64,000 nt of DNA from positions 192,001 through 256,000 of IMG/VR virus record IMGVR_UViG_3300010355_000898, one strand, 5' to 3'. Shown here one piece after another: positions 36,590 through 55,818 of this stretch. The translations under genes were made by a program, and so were the position numbers. The number at the start of each line of letters is the position of its first letter. The stretch's first letter is position 1. Below the pieces are notes generated by a model, which was not told the DNA's origin, did no database searches, and saw nothing but the letters and a program-made list of their open reading frames with translations. Source of the DNA: a virus (lineage: Duplodnaviria > Caudoviricetes).

Positions 36590-39079
36590 ATGTCATTCTT
36601 TAATTTCAATAGTGATGATCTTGAAGTATTTACACTGATAACATATCCAAGTAGACTTTTTAGCTCAAGCTCAAATGGAGTTATTGGAAGTGTAAATGTT
36701 TTCAACAGACGATCACAAATTGAAAAAGATATTGATCCAATATCATCATGTGTTAACAGTACACATGATGATGCTGACATATCAAATCAATTGCAATCAA
36801 TCACTTCAAAATGTGGAGTAAAAGTATCACTAAAACAGTCAATATATGATGAGATGACGTCATATATGAATGCTGTGAATTCTCAAAAACAGTCAATCAA
36901 AAAACAGAAACAACTTGAAATTTTGAGATCTGTACCGGGAAATGTATATGATACATCTTTTCAAAAAAAGATAATTGCAAAAAATTTGCAATCACATTAT
37001 AGGGTTGAATATTCTCACAATGATTGGAAATATAACAACTATTGTAGTCTGAATTTTTATTCAGGATCATCAGTTCCAGAACAGTCTGCACTCCTGTATC
37101 CAGATCCAGGAGAGAATCCAAATTCTTCATTGTATGAAGGTTATGTAACAGGAACATACAGTCTGCTTGGACCATTCAGCTTTGAATTCTATATCAATCC
37201 AAAATATAAACAAGAATCTGAACATTTTAACGCAGGAACAATTTTTCATCTTTCATCTTCATACGCTATATCACTTATTTCTGGATCAAAAAGGGACGAT
37301 TTTGGCAATGCCGAAATGTTCAGATTGCAATTGCAATTGAGCGCTAGCGCTGATATTAGACCAGATCTTGCTGTTCCTGGAAGTCATCCAAATAATTTCA
37401 CATTTTTGTCTGATGACAACAGCCTTCAATGGAATAAATGGCATCACGTTGTCATCAGATGGGGTACAAGTGATGTTGAATATGGGACCGGTTCTTTTGT
37501 TGTTGATGGAGAAGTTAAGGGAACATTTGTTATACCATCACAATCAATAGCGCCAAAATTGTTCAAAAACAGTGATAATCCTGCTCTGTTGACAATTGGA
37601 AATTATTATGTTGGAACAAATGCTGGCAATAGTTCACAAACAAGATTTTTTTCATCATATGTATCATACACTGAAGGTCTCAAAGAATTGTCTGCGTTGT
37701 CAGATAATCAACCTGAACAGTATGGATTTACAAATCCACTCAATGCTGAATTGCATGATTTGTCAATAAAGAGATATTACGTAACTGATGATGAAATTAT
37801 TCAGAATGGTGGTAGAGGACCAGAGATATCTGATGTAATTGATACAGAAAAGTATGCATTCTATCTTGGGCCACAATTTCATGAATTGTCACCAATTAGA
37901 AAAAAGTATGTTAATGATTATGCATCACCCGGTGGATATAAGATCACACCAGTAATGAATATTGACGGTTCAACAAAAACACCTTTTGGAACATTTATGT
38001 CAGGTATTGGTGGTAATTACATCAATATTGAAAATCATGTTGTTGATGCAACAAATTCAAATTGGCCAAGATGTCACCTGATGTCAAGCTCAATAACTGT
38101 TGAAGCATCTGATAATATTGTTGATTGCAATGAAATTCTTTATCAGGATGAATTCATTAGGAGAAGAAATACGCTGATACTTCCATGTGATGATGGAAAT
38201 TTTGTTCCATCATATGTAATTGCACAATTGAATTCAAACAATAACAGTATGCACACTGATTACGTTGGAAATGTTGACTATTCAATGGTTCAACTTGGAA
38301 ATGTGTATACATCAAGTTCATTCATAATTTCATCACAATTGTATGCAGCTCAAGAAGGAACACAAACATTTGCTGATGATCTCATAGGACCAACACCTGA
38401 ACACCCATTGAGAGCATATGGTCCTGCACTATCTTCATATATGAAGAGCTTGTACAGAGATGCACACTCTTCTGATGGGTATCAATACTCAAAAGTTTAT
38501 GCTGAACCAAATGTAATCTATTCCAGAACATTTGATAAGGCTTCAAATAATGTTACACTATTCAATATTAGTAACCTCTATTATGGGATGAAGATTAAAC
38601 CTGGGTCATTTTCAATTAAAGATGTATCCATTACAGGCTCAAATGGTAGATATGGTATAACGTTGCATGATGATGGGTTTGGTGGGTTGTACAGATCAGA
38701 TTGTTATGGTAAACAGGCAACCACAAATACAGTTGGAACAGTATTCTATGATGAAGGATTGATTGCCATCATAAATCCATATTTGAACCTTTTTGGAAAA
38801 GATCAGTTTGAAATATCATTCAAAGGTGTACAAAATGTTCATGTTGCAAAATATAGTGTGACAGCAAATGCAAATACATTGAACAGCTCAAAAAATCCTT
38901 CATACAAATTGTTGTCTGCATCACTCAATGCAAATGATCAGAATTCAAAATTTGTTGCAATATCAGGTATCAATTTTCATGATGACAATTACAATATTGT
39001 TATGAAATCTCAATTGGCACAACCAATTGTTAAGAGAACAACAGATACAATAACTTTCAAAGTGAAGTTTGATTTTTGA
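36590..39079 (+). CDS. Structural protein with LamG/ConA-like domain; C-terminus paralogous to 35361
   Basis: FSFEFYINP, KWHHVVI and FVVDG (LamG-like); IKPGSF, DDG.G.L, VG.VFY.EG, S.NPS, LAQPI.K, VKFDF. Confidence 0.65.
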   Translation: MSFFNFNSDDLEVFTLITYPSRLFSSSSNGVIGSVNVFNRRSQIEKDIDPISSCVNSTHDDADISNQLQSITSKCGVKVSLKQSIYDEMTSYMNAVNSQKQSIKKQKQLEILRSVPGNVYDTSFQKKIIAKNLQSHYRVEYSHNDWKYNNYCSLNFYSGSSVPEQSALLYPDPGENPNSSLYEGYVTGTYSLLGPFSFEFYINPKYKQESEHFNAGTIFHLSSSYAISLISGSKRDDFGNAEMFRLQLQLSASADIRPDLAVPGSHPNNFTFLSDDNSLQWNKWHHVVIRWGTSDVEYGTGSFVVDGEVKGTFVIPSQSIAPKLFKNSDNPALLTIGNYYVGTNAGNSSQTRFFSSYVSYTEGLKELSALSDNQPEQYGFTNPLNAELHDLSIKRYYVTDDEIIQNGGRGPEISDVIDTEKYAFYLGPQFHELSPIRKKYVNDYASPGGYKITPVMNIDGSTKTPFGTFMSGIGGNYINIENHVVDATNSNWPRCHLMSSSITVEASDNIVDCNEILYQDEFIRRRNTLILPCDDGNFVPSYVIAQLNSNNNSMHTDYVGNVDYSMVQLGNVYTSSSFIISSQLYAAQEGTQTFADDLIGPTPEHPLRAYGPALSSYMKSLYRDAHSSDGYQYSKVYAEPNVIYSRTFDKASNNVTLFNISNLYYGMKIKPGSFSIKDVSITGSNGRYGITLHDDGFGGLYRSDCYGKQATTNTVGTVFYDEGLIAIINPYLNLFGKDQFEISFKGVQNVHVAKYSVTANANTLNSSKNPSYKLLSASLNANDQNSKFVAISGINFHDDNYNIVMKSQLAQPIVKRTTDTITFKVKFDF

Positions 39080-39471
39080 TGAAAAAGAAGAAAAAGAAAT
39101 CAGCAAAATTTACAAATGGTATGCACCATTCAACCAAAACAGGTATGACATACAACTATAAGAGCAGTTGGGAATTGGCATACATGAAATTTCTCGATAA
39201 ATCTGATGATGTTAAATCATACCAATATGAACAGGTTATCATAATGTATGTATGCAAACTGAAAATGTATAATCTGAGAAAATATCTTCCTGATTTTTTG
39301 GTTGAATATTTGGATGGTAGAAAAGAATTGATTGAGATAAAACCTGCATCAAAAGTGAAAGACTATCAGGTTGCTGAAAAAGCAAAAATTGCAGAACAGT
39401 GGTGCAGAGAACACAATGCAACATTCAAATTTATGACAGAAGTTGATCTCAAAAAAATTGGTGTACTATAG
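39079..39471 (+). CDS. TnsA-like nuclease / T4 gp4-like head completion protein
   Basis: YKSSWE..YM..LD, YE...I.Y, YLPDF, IEIKP, K...A..WC, F..MTE. Confidence 0.8.
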   Translation: MKKKKKKSAKFTNGMHHSTKTGMTYNYKSSWELAYMKFLDKSDDVKSYQYEQVIIMYVCKLKMYNLRKYLPDFLVEYLDGRKELIEIKPASKVKDYQVAEKAKIAEQWCREHNATFKFMTEVDLKKIGVL

Positions 39472-41112: not shown

Positions 41113-41760
41113 GTGATAAAGATTGCACACATAAGTGACATTCATATCAGAGGTAGAAGTAGACTTGATGAATATCAAGAAATTTTGAGCAAATTCAATT
41201 CTGATGTTGAGCGTTTAAATGTTGATCATATATTCATAGGTGGTGATATTTTTCACACAAAAACACAAGGAATAACGCCCGAGTACATTGATTTTCTTGT
41301 GTGGTGGTTGAAATCAATGTCATCAATTGCACCAGTCCATATGATATTGGGTAACCATGATGGAAATCTTGTTAACTTATCAAGATTGGATGCAATAACG
41401 CCAATTGTTGAAGCAATTGGGGATGAAAATATACACTTATATAAGAATTCAGGAGTGTATGAATTCCATCCTGGATATACATTCTGTGTCTTTTCAATCT
41501 TTGATACAGAAAATTGGCATAAAGTGCTTCCAATTAGTGGAAAAACAAATATTGCATGTTATCACGGTCCAGTTCATGGTTCAACAACAGAAGTTGGATG
41601 GAACATTGAGGGTGAATTGAATGTTGATACATTTAAAGAATTTGATTTCTGTTTTTTGGGCGACATTCATAAAAAACAGTTTCTTGGTTTTAGAGATGTT
41701 GAAATTGAAATTGATGAAAATGATTTGTCAAAATACCCGGGTGCTGAGGTAATAGAATGA
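41113..41760 (+). CDS. Mre11/SbcD (gp47-like) nuclease, N-terminal part (motifs I-V)
   Basis: HISDIH, GGDIFH, GNHD, YHG, LGDIH, followed by an acidic tail and stop. Confidence 0.9.
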   Translation: MIKIAHISDIHIRGRSRLDEYQEILSKFNSDVERLNVDHIFIGGDIFHTKTQGITPEYIDFLVWWLKSMSSIAPVHMILGNHDGNLVNLSRLDAITPIVEAIGDENIHLYKNSGVYEFHPGYTFCVFSIFDTENWHKVLPISGKTNIACYHGPVHGSTTEVGWNIEGELNVDTFKEFDFCFLGDIHKKQFLGFRDVEIEIDENDLSKYPGAEVIE

Positions 41761-44342
41761 GCAATAAAAAGATCAGAATAAGGGTAAAAAAGCCCTGGAT
41801 AGGATATCCAGGTACTCCAATTCAACAAAATTATGCCGAAGATTTGGAACATGGATATTTTGTATGGGACATTGATAATGCAAAAAAATTTGATGTCAAA
41901 TATCATCAATTGCCAAACACAAAACCATTTGTTACGTTGAAATGGACTGATGATGTTGAAAAAACATTTGAACTTGCAAAAAAATATCCTCAAGGATCAA
42001 GATTTCGAATTGTTAGTGATGTGCACATCATTCAGCGAGATATACATGAATTGACAATGAAATTACGACAAGATTTGTGTGCTCTTGAGGTGACATACAA
42101 ATCTGATGCAGATTTGAGTTCAAAAAATGTCAAATTCACAAATTCAAATATTCAACAGGATGATTTGCGCAATATTGATGTTCAATTGAAATTGCTGAAA
42201 GAATATCATAAGAATTCATCAATAGATACAGAAGAATTTGATAAAATTTCAAATAAGATTAGAGACTATTTGAAAATTGTTGCAACTGGCGATGACACAA
42301 TAAGAAACACTCAGTGGTCACTTAAAAGTTTGAAATTTGACAATATGTTTTCATATTGTGAAGACAATTACATAAATTTTGAGAATTTGAATGGTGTAGT
42401 TGGAATTTTTGGTCAAAATAGAACTGGAAAATCATCAATTGTTGGTACGTTAATGTATGCTCTGTACAATGCAACAGATCGTGGTCCAATCAAAAATTTG
42501 CATGTAATCAACGTTAGAAAGGATAAATGTTCAGTTAGGGCAGTTATTCAAATCAATGGTGTTGATTATGTCGTTGAAAGAATTACTGAAAAGAATGAAA
42601 CAAAAAAGGGAGCAATATTTGCACCCACAACATTGAATCTCTATTCAATTGATGATAGTGGTGATGCTCACATTATGAATGGTGAGCAGAGAAATGATAC
42701 TGAAAAAATGATCAGAAAACTGATTGGAACACAGGATGATTTTCAAATCACATCATTGGCAGCACAGGATGATCTGAAACAGTTCATCAATCATGGATCA
42801 ACAAGACGTAGACAAATCTTGTCAAGATTTCTTGATCTTGATATTTTTGACAAAATGCATGAACTTGCAAAGAATGATTTGAATTTCATCAAGGCGCAAT
42901 ATAAGAATGTATCAAAAAAGGACTGGAAACAGACTGAAGATATATTGCTAACCAATATATCAAATTGTGAACAGGAACTTCAAACAATTGATGATAAGAT
43001 CAGTTTTTGCAGAAGTGAATTGTCAAAATATGAAATTGAACTATCAGCACACCACAATTCAAATCCTGTAACACAGTATGACATTGATCAGTGTAATGAA
43101 CAATTGAATTCAACAAACAGAAATTTGACAAATGAACTCAAATGTGAAAGTGATTATCAACACAAAATTGATGATTTGAAAGGTAAAATTCAAAAAATTG
43201 ATATTGCGTTAAAGAGTGTTGATGTCAATGATCTGAAGAATAGAAAAGAACAGATCAGAAAGCTCGAATTGTTAATCAATGATGTGAAACATGATTGTGA
43301 TGTTTCAGCAACAGAAATCAAAAGACATAAAAAATCACTTCAATTATTGAATGACATCCCATGTGGAGAAAAATATCCAACATGCAAATTCATTAAAGAT
43401 GCAATTGAATTGAAACCAGAATTGCTGAAAGAAGAACAGAAATCAACACAACTTACTGAAAAATTGCAAAATTATGTTGACAATATGAAAAAGTTGACAT
43501 ATGAAAATGTTGATGAAAAACTTGACAAATTTCAAAAACTTCAACAGATGAAATCAAAATTTGAGATTGAGGTTGAAAAATTCAATCATTCATTACACGT
43601 TTCAAAAGAAAAAATTGTCAGATTGAATGAAAAGATTGAATTGTTAACTGAACAATTGCAAAAATACATTGAAGCAATCAAGAATGATGATAATGTTACA
43701 ATTGTCAACATAAAGACAGAAATTGATAGAACAAAAAAACTCATAAAGAAGTATGATAATGATAAGATAATTTCAGCAACTGAAATTGGAAGATCAAAAT
43801 CTCAACTTGAAAAAGTTTTGAATGAAAAGGCTGAATATGATGAAGCTTTGAGTAAACTGAAAATTTATGAGTTGATAACATCTGCATTTTCAAAAAAGGG
43901 AATTCCACAGCTGATTATGCAATCACAATTGCCAATGTTGAATGAAGAGGTTACAAAATTATTGCATGGAATTGTTGATTTTACAATAGAACTTGGCGCA
44001 GATGATGAAACTGACAGTATGGAAATATACATCAATTATGGTGATAGTAAACGTCCAATTGAGTTGTGCTCAGGAATGGAAAAAACAATTGCATCAATTG
44101 CTTTGAGAGTTGCAATGATCAACATATCATCATTACCCAAATCTGACGTATTCATAATTGATGAGGGTTTTGGTGTTTTTGATGAGAGTGGTATTGATGC
44201 AGTCAATAGACTGTTGGGCGTTCTGAAAACATATTTCAAAACTGTTCTTATCATTACGCATATTGATGGCATAAAGGATGCAACAGATCAAATTGTTGAA
44301 ATATCAAAACGCGAAATTGATTCGTATGTATATTTCGAGTGA
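41757..44342 (+). CDS. Mre11 C-terminal part fused to Rad50/SbcC (gp46-like) ATPase
   Basis: YPGTPIQQNYAE...GY..WD (Mre11 C-terminal strands), FDNMFSY, GQNRTGKSS, coiled coil, CSGME, IIDEGFG, IITH. Confidence 0.9.
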   Translation: MSNKKIRIRVKKPWIGYPGTPIQQNYAEDLEHGYFVWDIDNAKKFDVKYHQLPNTKPFVTLKWTDDVEKTFELAKKYPQGSRFRIVSDVHIIQRDIHELTMKLRQDLCALEVTYKSDADLSSKNVKFTNSNIQQDDLRNIDVQLKLLKEYHKNSSIDTEEFDKISNKIRDYLKIVATGDDTIRNTQWSLKSLKFDNMFSYCEDNYINFENLNGVVGIFGQNRTGKSSIVGTLMYALYNATDRGPIKNLHVINVRKDKCSVRAVIQINGVDYVVERITEKNETKKGAIFAPTTLNLYSIDDSGDAHIMNGEQRNDTEKMIRKLIGTQDDFQITSLAAQDDLKQFINHGSTRRRQILSRFLDLDIFDKMHELAKNDLNFIKAQYKNVSKKDWKQTEDILLTNISNCEQELQTIDDKISFCRSELSKYEIELSAHHNSNPVTQYDIDQCNEQLNSTNRNLTNELKCESDYQHKIDDLKGKIQKIDIALKSVDVNDLKNRKEQIRKLELLINDVKHDCDVSATEIKRHKKSLQLLNDIPCGEKYPTCKFIKDAIELKPELLKEEQKSTQLTEKLQNYVDNMKKLTYENVDEKLDKFQKLQQMKSKFEIEVEKFNHSLHVSKEKIVRLNEKIELLTEQLQKYIEAIKNDDNVTIVNIKTEIDRTKKLIKKYDNDKIISATEIGRSKSQLEKVLNEKAEYDEALSKLKIYELITSAFSKKGIPQLIMQSQLPMLNEEVTKLLHGIVDFTIELGADDETDSMEIYINYGDSKRPIELCSGMEKTIASIALRVAMINISSLPKSDVFIIDEGFGVFDESGIDAVNRLLGVLKTYFKTVLIITHIDGIKDATDQIVEISKREIDSYVYFE

Positions 44343-44628: not shown

Positions 44629-45012
44629 ATGGCAGAACAAATAAATTACAATGCTTTGGGTCAAGCAATTGATACGACCTGGGGTAGAAGTTCAACTCCA
44701 CTCACATCTGGTTATTCAGTCAAATTTTCACTCTTTGGTGAAACTGGCATGATTGCTTCATACACAGCAATTGTCAATTTTGGCACAGAAAAACAGATGA
44801 TTGATATGAAATTGCGTTATCAGGATGAGGCAAACAGAGTTGTCAGTGAATATGTTAAAGCCATAAAAGAGAGATATAAGTCGTTGACTGGAAAAGCAAT
44901 AAAAATTGTTGAAAACAATTCCAGTGATTCAATTGAAGTGATTGGCTTTGGAGTACACAATCCTCGTAGAACAGCGTACTATAGAAAAAAGTTAGTCTTT
45001 GAATTGGGCTGA
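44629..45012 (+). CDS. Hypothetical protein upstream of terminase
   Basis: 127 aa; ATATTTA motif at 44613-44619. Confidence 0.7.
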   Translation: MAEQINYNALGQAIDTTWGRSSTPLTSGYSVKFSLFGETGMIASYTAIVNFGTEKQMIDMKLRYQDEANRVVSEYVKAIKERYKSLTGKAIKIVENNSSDSIEVIGFGVHNPRRTAYYRKKLVFELG

Positions 45013-45013
45013 A

Positions 45014-47812
45014 ATGGCATTAACAGGAAATCCAACAAAAAGTGATCAGGTAAAAGAGATAATCAGGTGCGGTAAAGACCCAGTCTATTTCATAAACAGT
45101 TATGTAAAAATTCAGCACCCATTGAAAGGAACCATACCTTTCAACACATATCCATTTCAGGATGAATGTTTGAAATCATATGAAGAAAATCGTTTCAACA
45201 TAATCTTGAAATCAAGACAGCTTGGTTTATCAACTGTCAGTGCTGCATATGCAGTGTGGCTGGCAATTTTTCATAAAGACAAGAATGTTCTCATCATTGC
45301 AACAAAACTTCCAACTGCACAAAACTTTGTGAAAAAATGTTTGGTTGCTGTTCAAAACTTACCAAAGTGGTTACTTTTGCCAAAATATCAACCATCAAAA
45401 CAACAGATAGAATTCAGTAATGGGTCAGTGATTAAGGCTATTCCAACATCTGAGGATGCTGGTAGATCAGAAGCTTTGTCATTGTTGATTGTGGATGAAT
45501 GCGCATTCATACGAGACTTTGATACGATTTGGACAGGTATTTTTCCAACAATAAGCTGTTTAACAGGTGATACAAAAGTATTGACTGATTTGGGATGGTC
45601 AAATATTGATGAATTGTGCAAAGGAGATATTGGAACATTTTGTGATGCAAAAGATTTGAATGTTTATGCAAAGAATGGATTTGAATCGGTTTCACATACA
45701 TACATTTCGCCAAAATCATCATTGAAAATTATCACAACGTCAAGTGGTAAAAAATTGAAAACTACATTTGAACATCCATTGTGGACCTTGAGAGATGGAA
45801 CAATTGGAATGATCAAAGCAAATCAATTGAAAATTGGTGATCATTTGAAATTGAAATTTGGTACACAACAATTTGGCAAAATTGTTGATGAAAATGCATA
45901 CATTAGTGGTGTGATCTTATCTAAGTCATTCATTAATGATAATGAAACATGTGTACAGAATGATGATGTACAAATAGGAGAACGTTTACTTGCAGTAGGG
46001 TTTCAATACAATGATGGTATATTCAGATCAGAACGTCAAGAACACAGATTGAATTCAATTCCAAATTCAGTTTGGAAAGGTAATAGGCATACGCAATCTC
46101 AGTTTTTGAGAGGGTTTTTTGATGCAAATTCACACATAGGCAACACAATAATGACATATTCTCATAACAGAGAATTGATGAATGAAATTCAACTGTTGTT
46201 GCAAAATTTTGGAATTGTGTCAAAAGTTTATGAATATTCTGATTTGAAATCAAGGTTATCAACCCCCCCAGTTGAAAACCAAACCAATTGGGTTCTTGAA
46301 TTGAACAAATATGGCTCTGAATTGTTCAAGAATGACATTGGAATAACTGTTGAAAAGAAAATGGGGAAACTATTAAAGTTGTCAGAAAAATATTCTGGCG
46401 ATGAAAGAATGCAATTTATATTGTCAAAAAAGTTGCAAAGTGTTGTTGAAACAATGTTGAGAAATGTGATTGACTATCAGAGAACAAGGATATCAAATCA
46501 CAAAAAATATTCATACATTTCTGATCTGATAGGAAAATTGAGATATCAGGTTCTTGCAAACAGAATTCTTGAGGATGATTTTGATCTGTCTGAGGATGAA
46601 CAAACATTCTTTCATGAAATTGGAGAAGAGAGTGTTCTGTGGGATGAAATTGTTTCAATTGAATGTGGTGATGATCAGATAACATATGATTTCACAGTTC
46701 CTGGAACACATACGTTTTATCAGAATGGTATATTGGGAAGCAATACAGGTGGTCGAGCAATTCTGCTGTCGACGCCAAATGGCGTTGGTGGTCAATATTA
46801 CAAATTGTGGGTCGATGCAGAAGCAGGTGTCAACAATTTTAATGCAATAAGATTGCCATGGACAGTTCATCCAGAACATGATCAGGATTGGTTTGTTAAT
46901 GAGACCAGAGGATTCACGAAAAAGAAAATTTCACAAGAATATGTGTGCGACTTCGTAGCAAGTGGTGACACGTTCTTAACGTCAGAAACACTCGAATTGG
47001 TTAGACAAGACATAGAAGTACCTTACAAAAAGTCAGAAATTGACAGAAATGTTTGGATATGGAAAGACCCAGTACCAGGAAAGAAATATATCATTTCAGC
47101 AGATGTATCAAGAGGTGATGCAAGAGATTTCAGCGCATTTCATGTTATTGACGAAGAAAAACTTGAAGTTGTTGCTGAATATATGGGAAAGATACCACCT
47201 GAAAAATTGGGTGATTTACTGAATGAAATTGGAAAATTGTATTGCAAAGCATTGATTGCAGTTGAACAGAATACGTTTGGATATTTCACTGCAACAAAAT
47301 TGAAAACAATTGGTTATCCACATCTCTATTATCACAATGCAAGGGGAGATTACAGATCATATGTGCCATCAGAGGATGAGACACCCGGTTTTCCAACAAA
47401 TCAGAAAACTAGAACACAAATAACAACAAAACTCGAAGAATTGTTGAGAAACAGACAACTTCATGTTAAGTCTCAACGATTATATGATCAATTGCAATCT
47501 TTCATCTGGAATGGAAATAAACCCATGGCTTCAAAGGATGCATATGACGATCTTGTTCTGTCACTTGCAATTGGGACGTGGATGCTCGATGCTGGTGAAG
47601 GAAAGAATGCAAATGTTGACATAATGTATGCACTTCTTGGATCAACTGGTAAAATTGGATTGAAACAGAATGACATTCCAGGTTTCAGGAAAATTCATGA
47701 TATGTCAATTCATTCAACTTACAAAAATATTGGTGTTGCAAAACCACGACAAATGGATGATGTCACAAAAGAAAGACCTGATCTGCTGATTGATACAAGT
47801 TGGTTATTATGA
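45014..47812 (+). CDS. terL: Terminase large subunit (T4 gp17-like), intein-containing
   Basis: DPVYF..YVKI.HP, YPFQ, LKSRQLG.ST, LIVDECAF, LSTPNG, QEY.C.F, ADVSRG...DFSA, VE.N..G, DDLV.SLA. Confidence 0.95.
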   Translation: MALTGNPTKSDQVKEIIRCGKDPVYFINSYVKIQHPLKGTIPFNTYPFQDECLKSYEENRFNIILKSRQLGLSTVSAAYAVWLAIFHKDKNVLIIATKLPTAQNFVKKCLVAVQNLPKWLLLPKYQPSKQQIEFSNGSVIKAIPTSEDAGRSEALSLLIVDECAFIRDFDTIWTGIFPTISCLTGDTKVLTDLGWSNIDELCKGDIGTFCDAKDLNVYAKNGFESVSHTYISPKSSLKIITTSSGKKLKTTFEHPLWTLRDGTIGMIKANQLKIGDHLKLKFGTQQFGKIVDENAYISGVILSKSFINDNETCVQNDDVQIGERLLAVGFQYNDGIFRSERQEHRLNSIPNSVWKGNRHTQSQFLRGFFDANSHIGNTIMTYSHNRELMNEIQLLLQNFGIVSKVYEYSDLKSRLSTPPVENQTNWVLELNKYGSELFKNDIGITVEKKMGKLLKLSEKYSGDERMQFILSKKLQSVVETMLRNVIDYQRTRISNHKKYSYISDLIGKLRYQVLANRILEDDFDLSEDEQTFFHEIGEESVLWDEIVSIECGDDQITYDFTVPGTHTFYQNGILGSNTGGRAILLSTPNGVGGQYYKLWVDAEAGVNNFNAIRLPWTVHPEHDQDWFVNETRGFTKKKISQEYVCDFVASGDTFLTSETLELVRQDIEVPYKKSEIDRNVWIWKDPVPGKKYIISADVSRGDARDFSAFHVIDEEKLEVVAEYMGKIPPEKLGDLLNEIGKLYCKALIAVEQNTFGYFTATKLKTIGYPHLYYHNARGDYRSYVPSEDETPGFPTNQKTRTQITTKLEELLRNRQLHVKSQRLYDQLQSFIWNGNKPMASKDAYDDLVLSLAIGTWMLDAGEGKNANVDIMYALLGSTGKIGLKQNDIPGFRKIHDMSIHSTYKNIGVAKPRQMDDVTKERPDLLIDTSWLL
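45557..46744 (+). mobile_element. Intein (396 aa) with LAGLIDADG-type endonuclease region
   Basis: PTIS|CLTGDT ... TTFEHPLW (block B) ... FLRGFFDANS, IQLLLQNFGI ... TYDFTVPGTH ... GILGSN|TGG. Removing it restores PTISTGG.AI.LSTPNG. Confidence 0.93.
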
Positions 47813-48198: not shown

Positions 48199-50679
48199 AT
48201 GACCAATAAAAAGAACAGAGATTTATTTAAGCGTTTAACAAGACTATTCAAATCAGGTCCAGTAGTAAAGAGAAAAATCAGATCTTATGATACAGTGATT
48301 GCATCGCCTGATCATGAAAAATCGTCAGCAGCGTTGCTTTTTCAGAGATCTTTTTCTCCAACATATTCAAGAATAACAGCCAATGCTTACAATCTTTCTG
48401 AGAGATTGATGAGGTATCAAGACTTTTGTCTCACTGGAGATACATTGGTTGCTGTGTTGAATGATACAGGCTATATGCGTCTTGATGAAATTGTTGATAG
48501 ATGGAATAGTGGTGATAGACACATATACACATATTCATATGATGTGCAAGATAATGTAAGAGTAGTTTCAAAAATTACTGGTGCAAAATACAATGGAAAA
48601 CGTGAAATTTTACACGTTGTTCTTGATGACGGTACGGTGATCAGATCAACTCCTGATCACAGATTTATGTTACGTGATGGGACATATGTTGAAGCAAAGG
48701 ATTTGACAAAAAATTCCAAATTGATGTCTATGAATTTGGAACGTTCAGTAAAAGAAATTCAAAATACTGATGAAATTGAAGATGTTTATGATATTGAAGT
48801 CGCTGACTATTCAAATTTTGCGTTAGTTTCCAATCTTGAAGAACATCCTTATTCAGTGTTTGTTCACAACTGTGAAATGGAACTTTTTCCTGAATTGTCA
48901 TCAGCACTTGATATATTTGCAGATGAAGTTATGGCATGTGATGATAAAGGAAAATCATTACACATATATTCTGACAACGAAAAGATAAAAGAGCTTCTTG
49001 ATGAACTGTTTTATGGTGTACTGAATTTTGAATTCAATGGAAGATTGTGGGCAAGAAATCTTTGCAAATTTGGTGATTTCATTCTGTACAATGATGTGCA
49101 TCCTGAACGTGGAATTGTGAACGCTTTTCCAATCCCAGTGAATGAAATTGAGAGAGAAGAAAACTTTGATAGAGAAGATCCATTTGCAATCAGGTACAGA
49201 TGGGCAGGTGCTGGTAATAGAACACTTGAAAATTGGGAAGTAACACATTTTAGATTGCTTGGTAATGATGCGTTTCTTCCATATGGATCATCAGTGCTTG
49301 ATCCAGCCAGAAGAATTTGGCGTCAATTGATCCTCATTGAGGATGCAATGTTGGTTTACAGAATTGTTAGAGCACCGGAACGTCGTGTATTCTATGTTGA
49401 CGTTGCAAACCTACCTCCAGCTGAAGTACCAATGTACATTGAGGAAATGAAAAAGAACTTGAGATCAAATCAGGTTATTGATCAGGCAACTGGAAGAGTT
49501 GATCTCAGATACAATCCGTTCAGTGTTGATGAAGATTTTTTGATCCCGGTGAGAGGTAATGAATCAGGCACAAAGATTGATACACTTGCTGGTGGACAGA
49601 ACACAGCTGCAGTTGAGGATGTTGCATATATTCAGAAGAAATTGTTTGCAGCATTGAAAATTCCAAAAGCATACCTTTCATATGATGAAGGTGTAAGTTC
49701 AAAAGCAACATTGGCATCTGAGGATATCAGATTTTCAAGAACAATAACATCAATACAAAAGATGATGATTGCTGAACTCAATAAGTTGGCAATTATTCAT
49801 CTGTATGCACATGGATATTCTGGTGAAGATTTGGGAAATTTCAATCTCAAATTGTCAAATCCATCGTCAGTTGCCCAACAGCAAAAACTTGAATTGTGGC
49901 GTTCAAAGTTTGAAATTGCCGGAAATATGCCTGAAGGTATGGGTAGTAAAGAATTCATCTACAGAGAGATCTGGGGATTGGATAGTGATCAGATAAACAA
50001 TATTGCAGATCAGCAATTGAGAGAACGTGTCTATTCAGTACAGCTTGATAATGTGTCAGAACCAGATACAGAAGAATTGTTTGGTAATGCGGGTGGTAAT
50101 ATGGGAGGAGCCGGTTCAGAGGGCGGCGCTGAGGCGGGAGCTGAGGAACTTGAAACTGCAGGTGAAGAACCGGAAGAAGAACAGGATCCTGATTTGGAAT
50201 TGTTGATCTCTGGTGATGAACCAAGCCCTGATGAAAAACCAATTTTTGAAAAGGATGAACCGGTTAAGGTAAATTCTCAAATCAAGAGAACACAATATAA
50301 TCGTTCAAGACAAAGAACACATGGAAGTTCAAAAACACACATCCCAGATTTTGGAAAGATGACATCAGAATTTGATTCAAACTCTGATCCATATGATGAT
50401 GAATACAGAAAATCAATCATAACAAATCCTTTCAAAGAAGGAAGAGATTTTCAATATTTTGTTAAACCAGAATTTCCTGAACATGTCAAATTGGATGAAA
50501 ATTTGAAGTGTGTTCTCAATCATCTTGATCAGAAATTTGGCTTTGGTAAGCGAATGAACAGCACAAAATTGATCAGTGAAGCAGTTGATATACAGGATGA
50601 AATTGATGGCAAAAATTTTGTCATTGACACAAAAAACATAGATTTAACCGGAATATTTGATATTAGAGAAGAGGAATAA
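48199..50679 (+). CDS. Portal protein (T4 gp20-like), intein-containing
   Basis: SALDIFADE, R.LCKFGD, HFRL, PYG.S.L..AR..WRQL.L.EDAMLVYRI.RAPERRVFYVDV, EDF.IP.RG, IDTL.GG, ALKIPK, DIRF.R. Confidence 0.95.
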   Translation: MTNKKNRDLFKRLTRLFKSGPVVKRKIRSYDTVIASPDHEKSSAALLFQRSFSPTYSRITANAYNLSERLMRYQDFCLTGDTLVAVLNDTGYMRLDEIVDRWNSGDRHIYTYSYDVQDNVRVVSKITGAKYNGKREILHVVLDDGTVIRSTPDHRFMLRDGTYVEAKDLTKNSKLMSMNLERSVKEIQNTDEIEDVYDIEVADYSNFALVSNLEEHPYSVFVHNCEMELFPELSSALDIFADEVMACDDKGKSLHIYSDNEKIKELLDELFYGVLNFEFNGRLWARNLCKFGDFILYNDVHPERGIVNAFPIPVNEIEREENFDREDPFAIRYRWAGAGNRTLENWEVTHFRLLGNDAFLPYGSSVLDPARRIWRQLILIEDAMLVYRIVRAPERRVFYVDVANLPPAEVPMYIEEMKKNLRSNQVIDQATGRVDLRYNPFSVDEDFLIPVRGNESGTKIDTLAGGQNTAAVEDVAYIQKKLFAALKIPKAYLSYDEGVSSKATLASEDIRFSRTITSIQKMMIAELNKLAIIHLYAHGYSGEDLGNFNLKLSNPSSVAQQQKLELWRSKFEIAGNMPEGMGSKEFIYREIWGLDSDQINNIADQQLRERVYSVQLDNVSEPDTEELFGNAGGNMGGAGSEGGAEAGAEELETAGEEPEEEQDPDLELLISGDEPSPDEKPIFEKDEPVKVNSQIKRTQYNRSRQRTHGSSKTHIPDFGKMTSEFDSNSDPYDDEYRKSIITNPFKEGRDFQYFVKPEFPEHVKLDENLKCVLNHLDQKFGFGKRMNSTKLISEAVDIQDEIDGKNFVIDTKNIDLTGIFDIREEE
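48427..48870 (+). mobile_element. Mini-intein (148 aa, no endonuclease)
   Basis: YQDF|CLTGDT ... STPDHRF ... VYDIEV...NF ... FVHN|CEME. Confidence 0.93.
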
Positions 50680-53937: not shown

Positions 53938-55818
53938 ATGTCAAAGCAATTATACGTTGAAGCATTAGCTGATGTCAAAAAATTGAAGGAAGTTGCAGAA
54001 AATAATGCAAAAAATGCAATTATTGAAGCTGTTACTCCAAGAATTAGAGAATTCATTGAAAATTCTCTTCAAGGAGAAATCGATGATCAAGAGGATGAAA
54101 CTGATGACATAACTCCTCCTGGAATGCCCTCAGTTAATGGAGAAATGTTGACAGATGTTGACAATAATCCAAATGAGAAGAATGATTTGACAGTATCTGG
54201 TGAAGAACAACCACTTGAACAGATGACGGCTCCAACTCCACAATCAGAACAACCATTGATATCATCTCCTGATGAAGAAGGAAAAGTTACTCTTGATCTG
54301 AGCGGTCTTGAGGCTCCTCCTGGTGAAGTTGATGTTGTTGTGCCAAATGTTGAGGATGTTGTTGTTGATGAAATATCTTCAGATGATTCAGAAGAAGAGT
54401 ATGAATTGAGTCTTGAAGCAATATCATTGTTGGCGCCTCTCATTGGAAAGAAGAAGGCTGCCAATGAAAAAATGTTTGAATTGAATGTTTACAGAATTTC
54501 AGAAGCAGTTGATCAGTACAGGACCGCAAGCAAACTTTTGAGAGAAACAAGAACATATCAGGATCAAATTTCAAAGATGATTGCTGCAGTGCAAAATATG
54601 TATGAATACTTGCAGGAAGCTGGTTTTGAACAGTCAAGGAAATCATTCCTTGAAGAAAAACTTGAGAAACTGCATGAGGATGTTAACAATCTCAAGAAAC
54701 AGGGCAAAAACATGAAAAAACTTAATGAAGCAGAAGTTACTCTCAAATTGACCGGCATGCCGGATGACATTGATCTTGAACAGATTGGTGTTGATCTCTT
54801 GACTGGTGAAGAGGAGGAAGGAACTGAAGAGGGTGAACCTGAGGACCTTGATATTGACATCACATCTGATGAGGATGAAGGTGGTGAAGAGGGCCAAGAG
54901 GGTGAAGATCTTGATCTGAACATTGATGCTGACGGTGAAGATGTTAACGTCAAAGAAGAGGGTGAAGATATGGATGATGATCAGGTCATTGAGATTGATG
55001 AATCTGTTCTCAGAAGAGAGCTGATCAGAGCACGTAAACTCTTTGAGAGCGCTGCAAAAGCAAAGAGTGCAAAGGACTTTGGCGGTGGAAAGTCTGATGG
55101 CGATCCACTGAAAGAGGATGAAGAATTTGGCGGTGGAAAATCAGAGGGTGATCCTCTCAAGGAAGCAGATGGTGCTTCAGATGATGAGGGAACTCTGGTT
55201 GCAAATGAATCAGTTTGCGAAGAGGGTGATGAGATGGAAGAGGGTGGTCAAAAGGGTGAAATCAATGATCAACCAGAAAATCGTCAGATTGAGGAAGAAC
55301 TTCAATTTGAGTCAAAATTGCGCTCATCACTTGCAAGGAGAGCTAAACTGATCAGAGAGAGTTCAGTCAGTGGTTCAAGAGTGCGTTACAACAACATTGT
55401 GAAGCGTTTCAATGAATCACTCGCACGTTCAAAAGGATTGCGTGCAAAGATGTTAAAAGAGCACAACTCAAATAGTGGCTCAAGGTCTGAGGAGAGCAGG
55501 ACCAACAGAAGTCTCCAAACAAAATTGGCAGAGACGAATCTCTACAATGCAAAACATCACTTAACAAAGAAGCTGTTTGAAACTCGTGTTGTGACATCTG
55601 CTCAGAAGGCAGCAATTGTCAGAAGAATTGATGCAGCAAAATCTGTTGGTGAGGTTAGGGCTCTAATTGAGAATTTCTCAAAGAGACTTAGTGGTAAGAC
55701 AATCAGTGAGAGTGCTGTCAAAGGCAGCGCATCACAACCCGCAAAGCAATCACAACCAGTCTTGACAGAAGGTGTCGAGGTTGATCGTTGGGGTAAGCTT
55801 GCTGGCATAATCAAGTGA
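53938..55818 (+). CDS. Prohead scaffold/core protein
   Basis: ALAD.KKLKEVA..NAK, long acidic regions, ETNLYNAK, C-terminal RWGKLAGI; immediately upstream of the capsid gene. Confidence 0.8.
   Translation: MSKQLYVEALADVKKLKEVAENNAKNAIIEAVTPRIREFIENSLQGEIDDQEDETDDITPPGMPSVNGEMLTDVDNNPNEKNDLTVSGEEQPLEQMTAPTPQSEQPLISSPDEEGKVTLDLSGLEAPPGEVDVVVPNVEDVVVDEISSDDSEEEYELSLEAISLLAPLIGKKKAANEKMFELNVYRISEAVDQYRTASKLLRETRTYQDQISKMIAAVQNMYEYLQEAGFEQSRKSFLEEKLEKLHEDVNNLKKQGKNMKKLNEAEVTLKLTGMPDDIDLEQIGVDLLTGEEEEGTEEGEPEDLDIDITSDEDEGGEEGQEGEDLDLNIDADGEDVNVKEEGEDMDDDQVIEIDESVLRRELIRARKLFESAAKAKSAKDFGGGKSDGDPLKEDEEFGGGKSEGDPLKEADGASDDEGTLVANESVCEEGDEMEEGGQKGEINDQPENRQIEEELQFESKLRSSLARRAKLIRESSVSGSRVRYNNIVKRFNESLARSKGLRAKMLKEHNSNSGSRSEESRTNRSLQTKLAETNLYNAKHHLTKKLFETRVVTSAQKAAIVRRIDAAKSVGEVRALIENFSKRLSGKTISESAVKGSASQPAKQSQPVLTEGVEVDRWGKLAGIIK
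55078..55164 (+). repeat. In-frame duplication FGGGKS(D/E)GDPLKE x2
   Basis: Copies at 55078-55116 and 55126-55164. Confidence 0.85.

Follow-up and report, generated by a model that had tools for sequence, protein, structure and literature searches.

The window analysed here, a stretch of 64,000 nucleotides (nt) of jumbo-phage DNA, spans bases 192001-256000 of an IMG/VR record of 269.5 kb (GC content 37%, CheckV completeness 74%) and encodes the repair nuclease Mre11 (SbcD) in two pieces, the second of which is covalently joined to Rad50 (SbcC). The nuclease domain is broken between its GDIH and YPG motifs, and the two ends carry short extensions of opposite charge, an acidic tail on the upstream piece and a basic head on the downstream one. 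The split is real and natural, and not an assembly error or other artefact, because the junction is identical in an independent assembly and the best 120 matches to the upstream piece share it. Very probably the locus is a fractured gene: an endonuclease cassette would have split a fused Mre11-Rad50 gene and left the tails behind, and the pieces would now assemble non-covalently. It belongs to a type already described, the principle of which has been in print since 2009-2011 (Crona et al., 2011; Dassa et al., 2009). The two open reading frames (ORFs) and their parts, in window coordinates, are as follows.

41113..41760, plus strand: ORF1, the Mre11/SbcD N-piece (GTG start, 215 residues), with phosphoesterase motifs I-V and the acidic tail
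41698..41757, plus strand: acidic C-terminal tail V196-E215 (VEIEIDENDLSKYPGAEVIE), not present in fused relatives
41746..41750, plus strand: Shine-Dalgarno-like GAGGT for ORF2, within the A-E-V codons of the tail; gap of 7 nt from GAGG to ATG
41757..41760, plus strand: ATGA stop/start overlap, in which the ORF2 ATG (41757-41759) overlaps the ORF1 TGA; translational coupling
41757..44342, plus strand: ORF2, 861 residues, starting MSNKKIRIRVKK PWIGYPGTPIQQN
41757..41792, plus strand: basic N-terminal head M1-K12 (MSNKKIRIRVKK), not present in fused relatives
41793..42341, plus strand: Mre11 C-part in ORF2, about residues 13-195, colinear with residues 198-400 of fused relatives
42342..44342, plus strand: Rad50/SbcC ABC ATPase and coiled coil, covalently joined to the Mre11 C-part

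Two pieces of one nuclease

ORF1 matches Pfam Metallophos above cut-off (E 5e-14) and the SbcD-like family phrog_100 of PHROG (E 3e-17), and its PDB profile match is Escherichia coli SbcD (E 1e-6), with GDIHK-x-QFL aligned to GHIHRAQII. It contains motifs I-V of the Mre11/SbcD phosphoesterases with their metal-binding Asp, His and Asn residues (D9/H11, GGD45-x2-H48, GN81-H82-D, H151 and GD184-I-H186). The metal ligands D9, H11, D45, H48, N81, H82, H151, D184 and H186 thus all reside on ORF1, and they are invariant in 94 sequences. The C-terminus of ORF1 reads ...FLGDIHKKQFLGFRD VEIEIDENDLSKYPGAEVIE, followed by the stop codon TGA at 41758-41760.

In ORF2, likeness to SbcC/Rad50 begins only at about residue 190 (Pfam AAA_23, E 4e-12, above cut-off; SbcC-like phrog_77, E 1e-49; Pfam SMC_N, E 1e-4, under the gathering score), and the translation contains the Rad50/SbcC Walker A (GQNRTGKS), signature (SGMEK) and D-loop (IDEGFG) motifs. 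The preceding Mre11 C-part gave no significant match in a PDB profile search on its own; modelled alone with AlphaFold2 (AF2), it forms strands at 32-39 and 45-52, followed by a confident domain at 58-133. Its identity follows from a fused relative in which nuclease and ATPase form one chain. The AF2 model of residues 1-400 of that protein (P0145:1-400; mean predicted local distance difference test score, pLDDT, 80.6) finds E. coli SbcD chains as its best Foldseek matches (4lu9_C, E 5.7e-14, probability 1.0, about 350 columns). Since this model matches the whole of SbcD, ORF2 13-195 comprises the last nuclease-sandwich strands (with motif VI, YPGT), the capping domain and the linker helices of Mre11. 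The fold of nuclease sandwich plus capping domain was seen in this fused relative, not in the window's own two chains.

A conserved junction

An assembly from another sample (L171; ENA ERZ27309396, 41 kb) has a junction identical base for base, and the surrounding 201 nt differ from the window by four substitutions, three synonymous and one producing R7K in the head. Among 5.8 billion proteins searched, 369 relatives of ORF1 have lengths within 118-377 residues. The best 120 of these 369 are all 214-233 residues long, at 60-67% identity and 98-100% query coverage, and 118 of the 120 tails follow one consensus; the other two are one relative without it and the window's own. The best 120 matches to the ORF2 N-terminus divide differently: 43 are C-halves of 843-963 residues, most of which begin M-x-K-K-I-[KR]-I-[KR]-V-K-K-P-W, and 75 are single chains of about 1045 residues. 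Three C-halves (P0123, P0124 and P0127; L166 3001-5892), at 962-963 residues, exceed the usual 860 by about 100; their basic head is normal, so the added length sits farther downstream. Junctions among the relatives number 72 distinct fused and 13 split, and every split falls at the same hairpin.

Insertion at the tip of a β-hairpin

Most relatives, at about 60-66% identity, are one fused Mre11-Rad50 chain of about 1045 residues. Single ORFs of 1041-1202 residues that join nuclease and ATPase occur in Microcystis phage Mel-JY01, where the product is annotated simply as 'AAA domain containing protein', in the 735-kb phage LR756501, and in the 72 metagenomic junction types; a literature search for descriptions of fused Mre11-Rad50 in phages found nothing specific. 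The order of genes is constant across the relatives: a TnsA-like gene, a primase and Mre11-Rad50, then terminase and portal. In the close fused relatives (63-66% identity; L007, L008 and L089) the point of the break reads GDIHKRQFLGYRD-G-KPWIGYPG, that is GYRD-G-KPWIGYPG, while the window reads GDIHKKQFLGFRD, then tail and stop, start and head, then KPWIGYPG. The 31 extra residues, 20 in the tail and 11 in the head, have therefore been inserted at a single, precisely defined point. In the P0145 model this point is the two-residue turn D196-G197 between strands 190-195 and 198-203, a hairpin block with a pLDDT of about 93, which places the insertion at the predicted tip of a tight β-hairpin.

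Much of the original prediction, made from the sequence alone, agrees with this picture. It had placed the cut between two motifs that are only a few residues apart in one chain, and just 5-9 residues separate GDIH-x3-F/Y-L from YPG in the fused relatives. The acidic tail, the basic head, the ATGA overlap and the upstream GAGGT are in every detail as it described them, and its view of the split as natural and translationally coupled is borne out by L171 and by the best 120 matches. It had also supposed that the gene boundary moved so that Rad50 came to carry part of Mre11. The history is a different one: the ancestral state in this phage group is a single fused Mre11-Rad50 chain, later cut at a new site.

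Endonuclease genes at the break in relatives

In relatives, the same codon still houses homing-endonuclease cassettes. In L004/L085, whose host gene is 64% identical, a 289-residue ORF stands between ...VEIEINEEDLHLYEGAEIVS* and MGKIKIRVKKPW and overlaps both neighbours; its product combines zinc-finger-like Cys pairs with a Vsr/DUF559/PvuRts1I-like nuclease end, and matches PHROG families labelled 'homing endonuclease' and 'HNH endonuclease'. In L002, the 484-kb phage LR756508, which is just 35% identical, the break is occupied by a 305-residue ORF with zinc-finger and TnsA_N-like parts, flanked by a similar acidic tail (...YEVEEMVVEEDELEKY...) and basic head (..DDKYRVKRVW). Other split alleles have spacers of 20, 38 or 90 nt, or overlaps of the forms ATGA, TAATG, TGATG and 8 nt. 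Judged from these sequences, the range of junctions looks like stages in the decay and loss of an endonuclease, with the window at the end of the series. The tails would accordingly belong to the cassette, rather than having evolved simply after the split as first proposed.

Small ORFs that overlap both Mre11 pieces also occur at two junctions (L015 5645-5863, 72 residues; L097 1120-1296, 59 residues). They have no family match and no likeness to the junction endonucleases, and could be unrelated hitch-hikers or remnants. Elsewhere in the phage genome, outside the window, two stretches (G000:C1 ~49115-49525 and 54115-55050) resemble the junction endonucleases (tblastn E 1e-4 to 1e-6), namely the zinc-finger part of the L002 enzyme and the Vsr-like end of the L004 enzyme; the phage therefore still has free-standing relatives of the junction nucleases. 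The L004 gene has no full-length relative in the phage genome, only these partial matches.

The distribution of alleles is patchy. In trees of the region downstream of the break, with changes counted unrooted, split and fused forms are interleaved, requiring at least 11 changes (FastTree, 124 rows), or at least 9 on well-supported branches only (IQ-TREE, 42 rows). A single clade of long-tailed split forms is rejected by the approximately unbiased (AU) test (log-likelihood difference 1021, p 3.9e-6); the group tested was chosen after the first tree, which makes the p-value generous, though the effect is very large. One split allele, P0215, has a nested position within the fused ones, and its identity to the fused P0230 is 63-91% per 60-residue window. 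Because of this interleaving and nesting, the sequences point to a cassette, or its scar, that was gained or lost many times, a pattern that would be expected from homing and from recombination between co-infecting phages.

Several points weigh against this history. The window's own junction, an ATGA overlap, has no endonuclease gene, so a free-standing endonuclease is absent from the break itself; from the relatives we infer that one was once there and that the window is an endonuclease-less derivative. The L004 and L002 endonucleases are barely related (BLASTP E 0.013, in zinc-finger repeats only), and therefore either one or neither could have brought the tails. An unrooted count of changes does not separate gain from loss: the fused P0211 (..YRESIDESGVTRKKPW..), for instance, is compatible both with a re-fused deletion product and with a precursor. 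Finally, no co-conversion tract was demonstrated between split P0215/L167 and fused P0230/L170, where the first ~25 residues give a weak hint of one and the N-side comparison is uninformative.

Charge, conservation and assembly of the tails

The two extensions occur in split forms only and keep opposite charges across more than 100 relatives. All 120 tails are acidic (net -3 to -10, mean -6.1) and all 34 long heads are basic (+3 to +9, mean +5.3); the window's tail has seven acidic residues and one basic (net -6), and its head has six basic residues (net +6). The tail consensus over the 120 relatives is R-[DE]-V-E-[LI]-x-I-D-E-x-D-L-x-K-Y-P-G-A-E-[VI]-[ILV]-E, in which E197, I200, L205, Y208 and P209 are at least 90% conserved and D201 88% (106/120). 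The head consensus, M-x-K-K-I-[KR]-I-[KR]-V-K-K, retains a strict basic/hydrophobic alternation (K5 in 31/34, I8 in 32/34). Column identity is 0.69 in the tail versus 0.78 in the nuclease core, and 0.69 in the head versus 0.59 in the remaining Mre11 C-part.

Structure prediction of ORF1 in complex with ORF2 1-195 scored 0.89 versus 0.00 for the best control, a mark that solved complexes attain in 58 of 80 cases and mismatched pairs in 2 of 110; these counts apply only roughly, since the present prediction used alignments of our own. The runs share at least 93% of their contacts, and partner pLDDT is at least 69. The modelled interface comprises ORF1 178-203, L205, Y208 and 210-215 together with ORF2 2-22, whereas the lowest-error contacts are in the core, between ORF1 3-7 and ORF2 34-39 and between ORF1 179-182 and ORF2 14-17. 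Because the two chains are halves of a fold with solved structures, the pass may stem from likeness to that fold and not from binding of this particular copy.

The original prediction read the extensions as an electrostatic β-zipper that reassembles the nuclease. Its geometry is a natural one. Since tail and head lie on the two arms of the cut hairpin, an antiparallel ribbon prolonging that hairpin is the simplest arrangement, and from the two sequences we infer a register in which V196-V10, I198-I8 and I200-I6 share one face and E197-R9, E199-R7 and D201-K5 the other. The alternating acidic pattern of such a zipper is not conserved, however, position 199 being V, E, T or I. Reassembly by the tails was likewise overstated: tail and head are in the interface, but the lowest-error contacts are in the core, and a sister clade (L165, P0228 and others) is split at the same turn with nearly no tails (GYREL* / MKKLTPW). 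This clade is itself conserved, with 7 clusters and at least 23 contigs (23 for P0228 alone). One example, L165 2405-3200 on a Logan ERR3573280 contig, has the ATGA overlap and reads GYREL* / MKKLTPWIGY.

These observations bear on the most serious competing explanation, that the tails are functionally neutral. On this view they were left by the cassette, the one arising by read-through into its DNA and the other from a start codon recruited there, and persist only through constraints on the nucleotide sequence (ribosome-binding site, coupling, a disrupted endonuclease target), while the halves assemble purely through the nuclease core. The near-tail-less clade and the core location of the lowest-error contacts fit such a view, as does the finding that the Aeh1 NrdA heterodimer forms without need of its tails (Crona et al., 2011, PMC3045599). 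We nonetheless consider it unlikely. The GAGG does lie within the A-E-V codons, but amino-acid conservation of at least 90% (D201, 88%) extends to E197, I200, L205, Y208 and P209, far from the ribosome-binding site, and holds across clusters just 60-67% identical; the alternation in the head is strict, the sign of charge is constant in every tail and every head, and residues of both fall within the modelled interface.

The idea that tail and head do help assembly has its own difficulties. The conservation of A-E-V partly coincides with the Shine-Dalgarno site. The complex model gives interface residues, not tail-head pairs, so the register of the ribbon goes beyond it. The near-tail-less split clade argues against any strict need for tails. 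Because its members carry the same split nearly tail-less, the tails are probably helpful and not essential; judging by the model, the core is the main driver of assembly and the tails most likely make it tighter or faster, a role close, by analogy, to that found for Aeh1 NrdA.

A bolder proposal is that tail and head are a self-sufficient, portable heterodimerising mini-domain of about 31 residues, a two-stranded ribbon with a clasp, which would serve the cassette as an 'antidote'. We hold this to be doubtful, if somewhat less so than the neutral reading. Were it true, the cassette could invade β-hairpins of essential genes with neither intron nor intein, and the pair would be a distinct transferable class of natural split-protein tag, movable to other proteins. 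A regular-expression scan for the same tails on other genes of the phage, covering all 1387 ORFs in the 269.5-kb record, returned only this pair.

Frameshifts and inteins

Three further explanations have next to nothing left to recommend them. The first, that a sequencing or assembly frameshift or a pseudogene conceals one continuous Mre11-Rad50 ORF, draws on the fused form of most relatives and on ORF1 and ORF2 being one base apart in frame. It is virtually ruled out by the identical junction of the independent assembly L171, the split in all of the best 120 matches with its tail consensus in 118, the conservation of each ORF across its full length, and the 31 added codons of the split form relative to the fused, which are not a one-base indel.

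The second, programmed -1 ribosomal frameshifting that would yield one fused chain and make the two-piece reading a by-product, has in its favour the overlap of the frames and the position of ORF2 in the -1 frame relative to ORF1. The doubly open stretch, however, is just 12 nt (41748-41759) and contains no slippery heptamer of the form X XXY YYZ, ORF2 is equipped with an ATG and a ribosome-binding site of its own, and the spacers (20-90 nt), small ORFs or endonuclease genes at the junctions of relatives could not be bridged by frameshifting; its probability is negligible.

The third is that tail and head are remnants of the N- and C-pieces of a once-splicing split intein. The order of N-piece, endonuclease and C-piece is indeed that of the fractured genes with split inteins (Dassa et al., 2009), and inteins are not foreign to this phage genome, whose terminase contains one. 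Against this, Pfam finds no HINT or intein domain here. Tail and head total 31 residues, far below the size of a HINT domain, versus at least ~120 in known split inteins (88-105 plus 33-54; Dassa et al., 2009). The splicing nucleophiles are missing as well: the tail starts with V after D195 and the head ends with K-K before P, with neither Cys/Ser at the start of the tail nor His-Asn plus Cys/Ser/Thr at the end of the head. Dassa et al. (2009; PMC2677866) themselves remarked on the lack of an intein at their SbcD-like locus. The original prediction was thus right to call the junction intein-free, and a degenerate intein is so improbable that it can be set aside.

Precedents among fractured genes

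The original prediction saw in the extensions a minimal, non-splicing tag, an idea that has two precedents. Dassa et al. (2009; PMC2677866) described an intein-free SbcD-like gene whose N- and C-halves are separated between two successive conserved motifs, with extra residues at the break (25 C-terminal and 9 N-terminal) that unsplit homologues do not have and with an endonuclease whose 3' end overlaps the downstream piece. Compared by description only, the L004/L085 arrangement (289-residue Vsr-like gene, head MGKIKIRVK) fits this locus closely, and the locus would be an L004-type allele of the same split. The window differs from it in having no endonuclease gene and in the direct overlap of its pieces (ATGA). 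The 2009 report dealt with one locus and gave no function for the extra residues, nor did it mention a fused Mre11-Rad50 host or charge complementarity.

The second precedent is the 'genes in pieces' arrangement nrdA-a / mobE / nrdA-b of Aeromonas phage Aeh1, for which Crona et al. (2011; Nucleic Acids Res 39:1381, PMC3045599) demonstrated by experiment that the split NrdA is put back together by tails of opposite charge that came with mobE. These tails are dispensable for the heterodimer and essential for higher-order assembly and activity, and the authors predicted similar tails on other fractured genes. As is proposed for the Mre11 split, the cut lies between adjacent β-strands, the tails of opposite charge derive from the cassette, and a free-standing homing endonuclease splits an essential phage enzyme, whose function is restored by non-covalent assembly, with no splicing of RNA or protein. 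The host enzyme of Aeh1 is a ribonucleotide reductase, however, the endonuclease is the HNH enzyme MobE and is still present, and the polarity is reversed, the upstream tail being basic and the downstream one acidic. The Aeh1 tails are also proven essential, for activity and dimerisation of the heterodimer, whereas the role of the Mre11 tails is predicted from a model, and a near-tail-less clade exists.

Other fractured genes share parts of this organization. In the phage T4 topoisomerase (39 / mobA / 60), a gene that relatives have in one piece is split by the insertion of a homing endonuclease, and charged tail-like extensions flank the break; that they act as assembly tails is a speculation of Crona et al. 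(2011, PMC3045599). Gene 60 has in addition a 50-nt translational bypass, whereas none is seen at the Mre11 junction. The split-intein fractured genes gp41-1, NrdJ-1 and IMPDH-1 (Dassa et al., 2009) are likewise laid out in three parts, the middle one being a Vsr-like or GIY-YIG gene, and they too can lose the endonuclease, as in gp41-7. Their halves, however, are joined by protein trans-splicing, whereas the Mre11 split has no HINT domain or splicing residues.

A model for the fractured locus

The reading that we favour can be laid out as a sequence of events. The ancestor would have been a single polypeptide of Mre11 and Rad50, about 1045 residues long. A homing-endonuclease cassette would have entered at the two-residue turn of the hairpin, between phosphoesterase motifs V (GDIH) and VI (YPG). 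It would have lengthened both arms in frame, the upstream one by an acidic stretch that ends in a stop codon and the downstream one by a basic stretch that opens with a start codon, with the endonuclease gene between the two. The lineage of the window would since have lost the endonuclease gene, leaving the two extensions joined by ATGA, with a Shine-Dalgarno sequence in the codons of the tail. Both pieces would probably be made from one message and in similar amounts.

The pieces would then assemble with no covalent joining. ORF2 strands at about 14-18 and 33-39 are predicted to complete the β-sandwich of the nuclease beside ORF1 strands 3-7 and 178-182, while tail and head may form an antiparallel ribbon with one hydrophobic face and one face of acid-base pairs, over which the tail segment DL-x-KYPGAEVIE may fold back. 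Rad50 would remain tethered to the capping domain of Mre11 as in the fused ancestors, and the metal ligands would remain on ORF1. The tails would probably strengthen or speed assembly and not be indispensable to it, and the scar may also shield the allele from recutting by related endonucleases.

Coiled-coil apex and neighbouring genes

The canonical CxxC zinc hook is not found at the coiled-coil apex of ORF2, which reads P-C-G-E-K-Y-P-T-C (C-x6-C; window ~43350-43380, ORF2 535-543). P535, C536 and C543 are invariant in 36 sequences, and we regard this apex as a non-canonical hook with putative zinc binding. Upstream, at 39076-39471, a gene that overlaps the end of a preceding 829-residue gene encodes a 131-residue protein with a TnsA-like endonuclease N-terminal domain (Pfam E 1.5e-15; best PHROG labelled 'head closure'). 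Its position upstream of primase and Mre11 is kept in the relatives, at times in two copies. Downstream, at 44999-47812, the large terminase gene (937 residues) contains an intein with a LAGLIDADG endonuclease, and its L171 homologue matches Pfam Terminase_6N, Intein_splicing and LAGLIDADG_3.

Significance

To this known type of locus the present analysis adds the endonuclease-less, ATGA-coupled allele, its fused Mre11-Rad50 context, the mapping of the break to the tip of a hairpin, the extent and patchiness of its distribution, and the near-tail-less split clade. An essential repair enzyme can, it appears, survive being cut by a selfish endonuclease in the midst of its catalytic fold, and the scar outlives the endonuclease. 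The natural fused, tailed-split and tail-less-split alleles are numerous and together provide a comparison set for asking what a split protein gains in reassembly from short charged extensions of its strands, one that would be useful for split-protein design.

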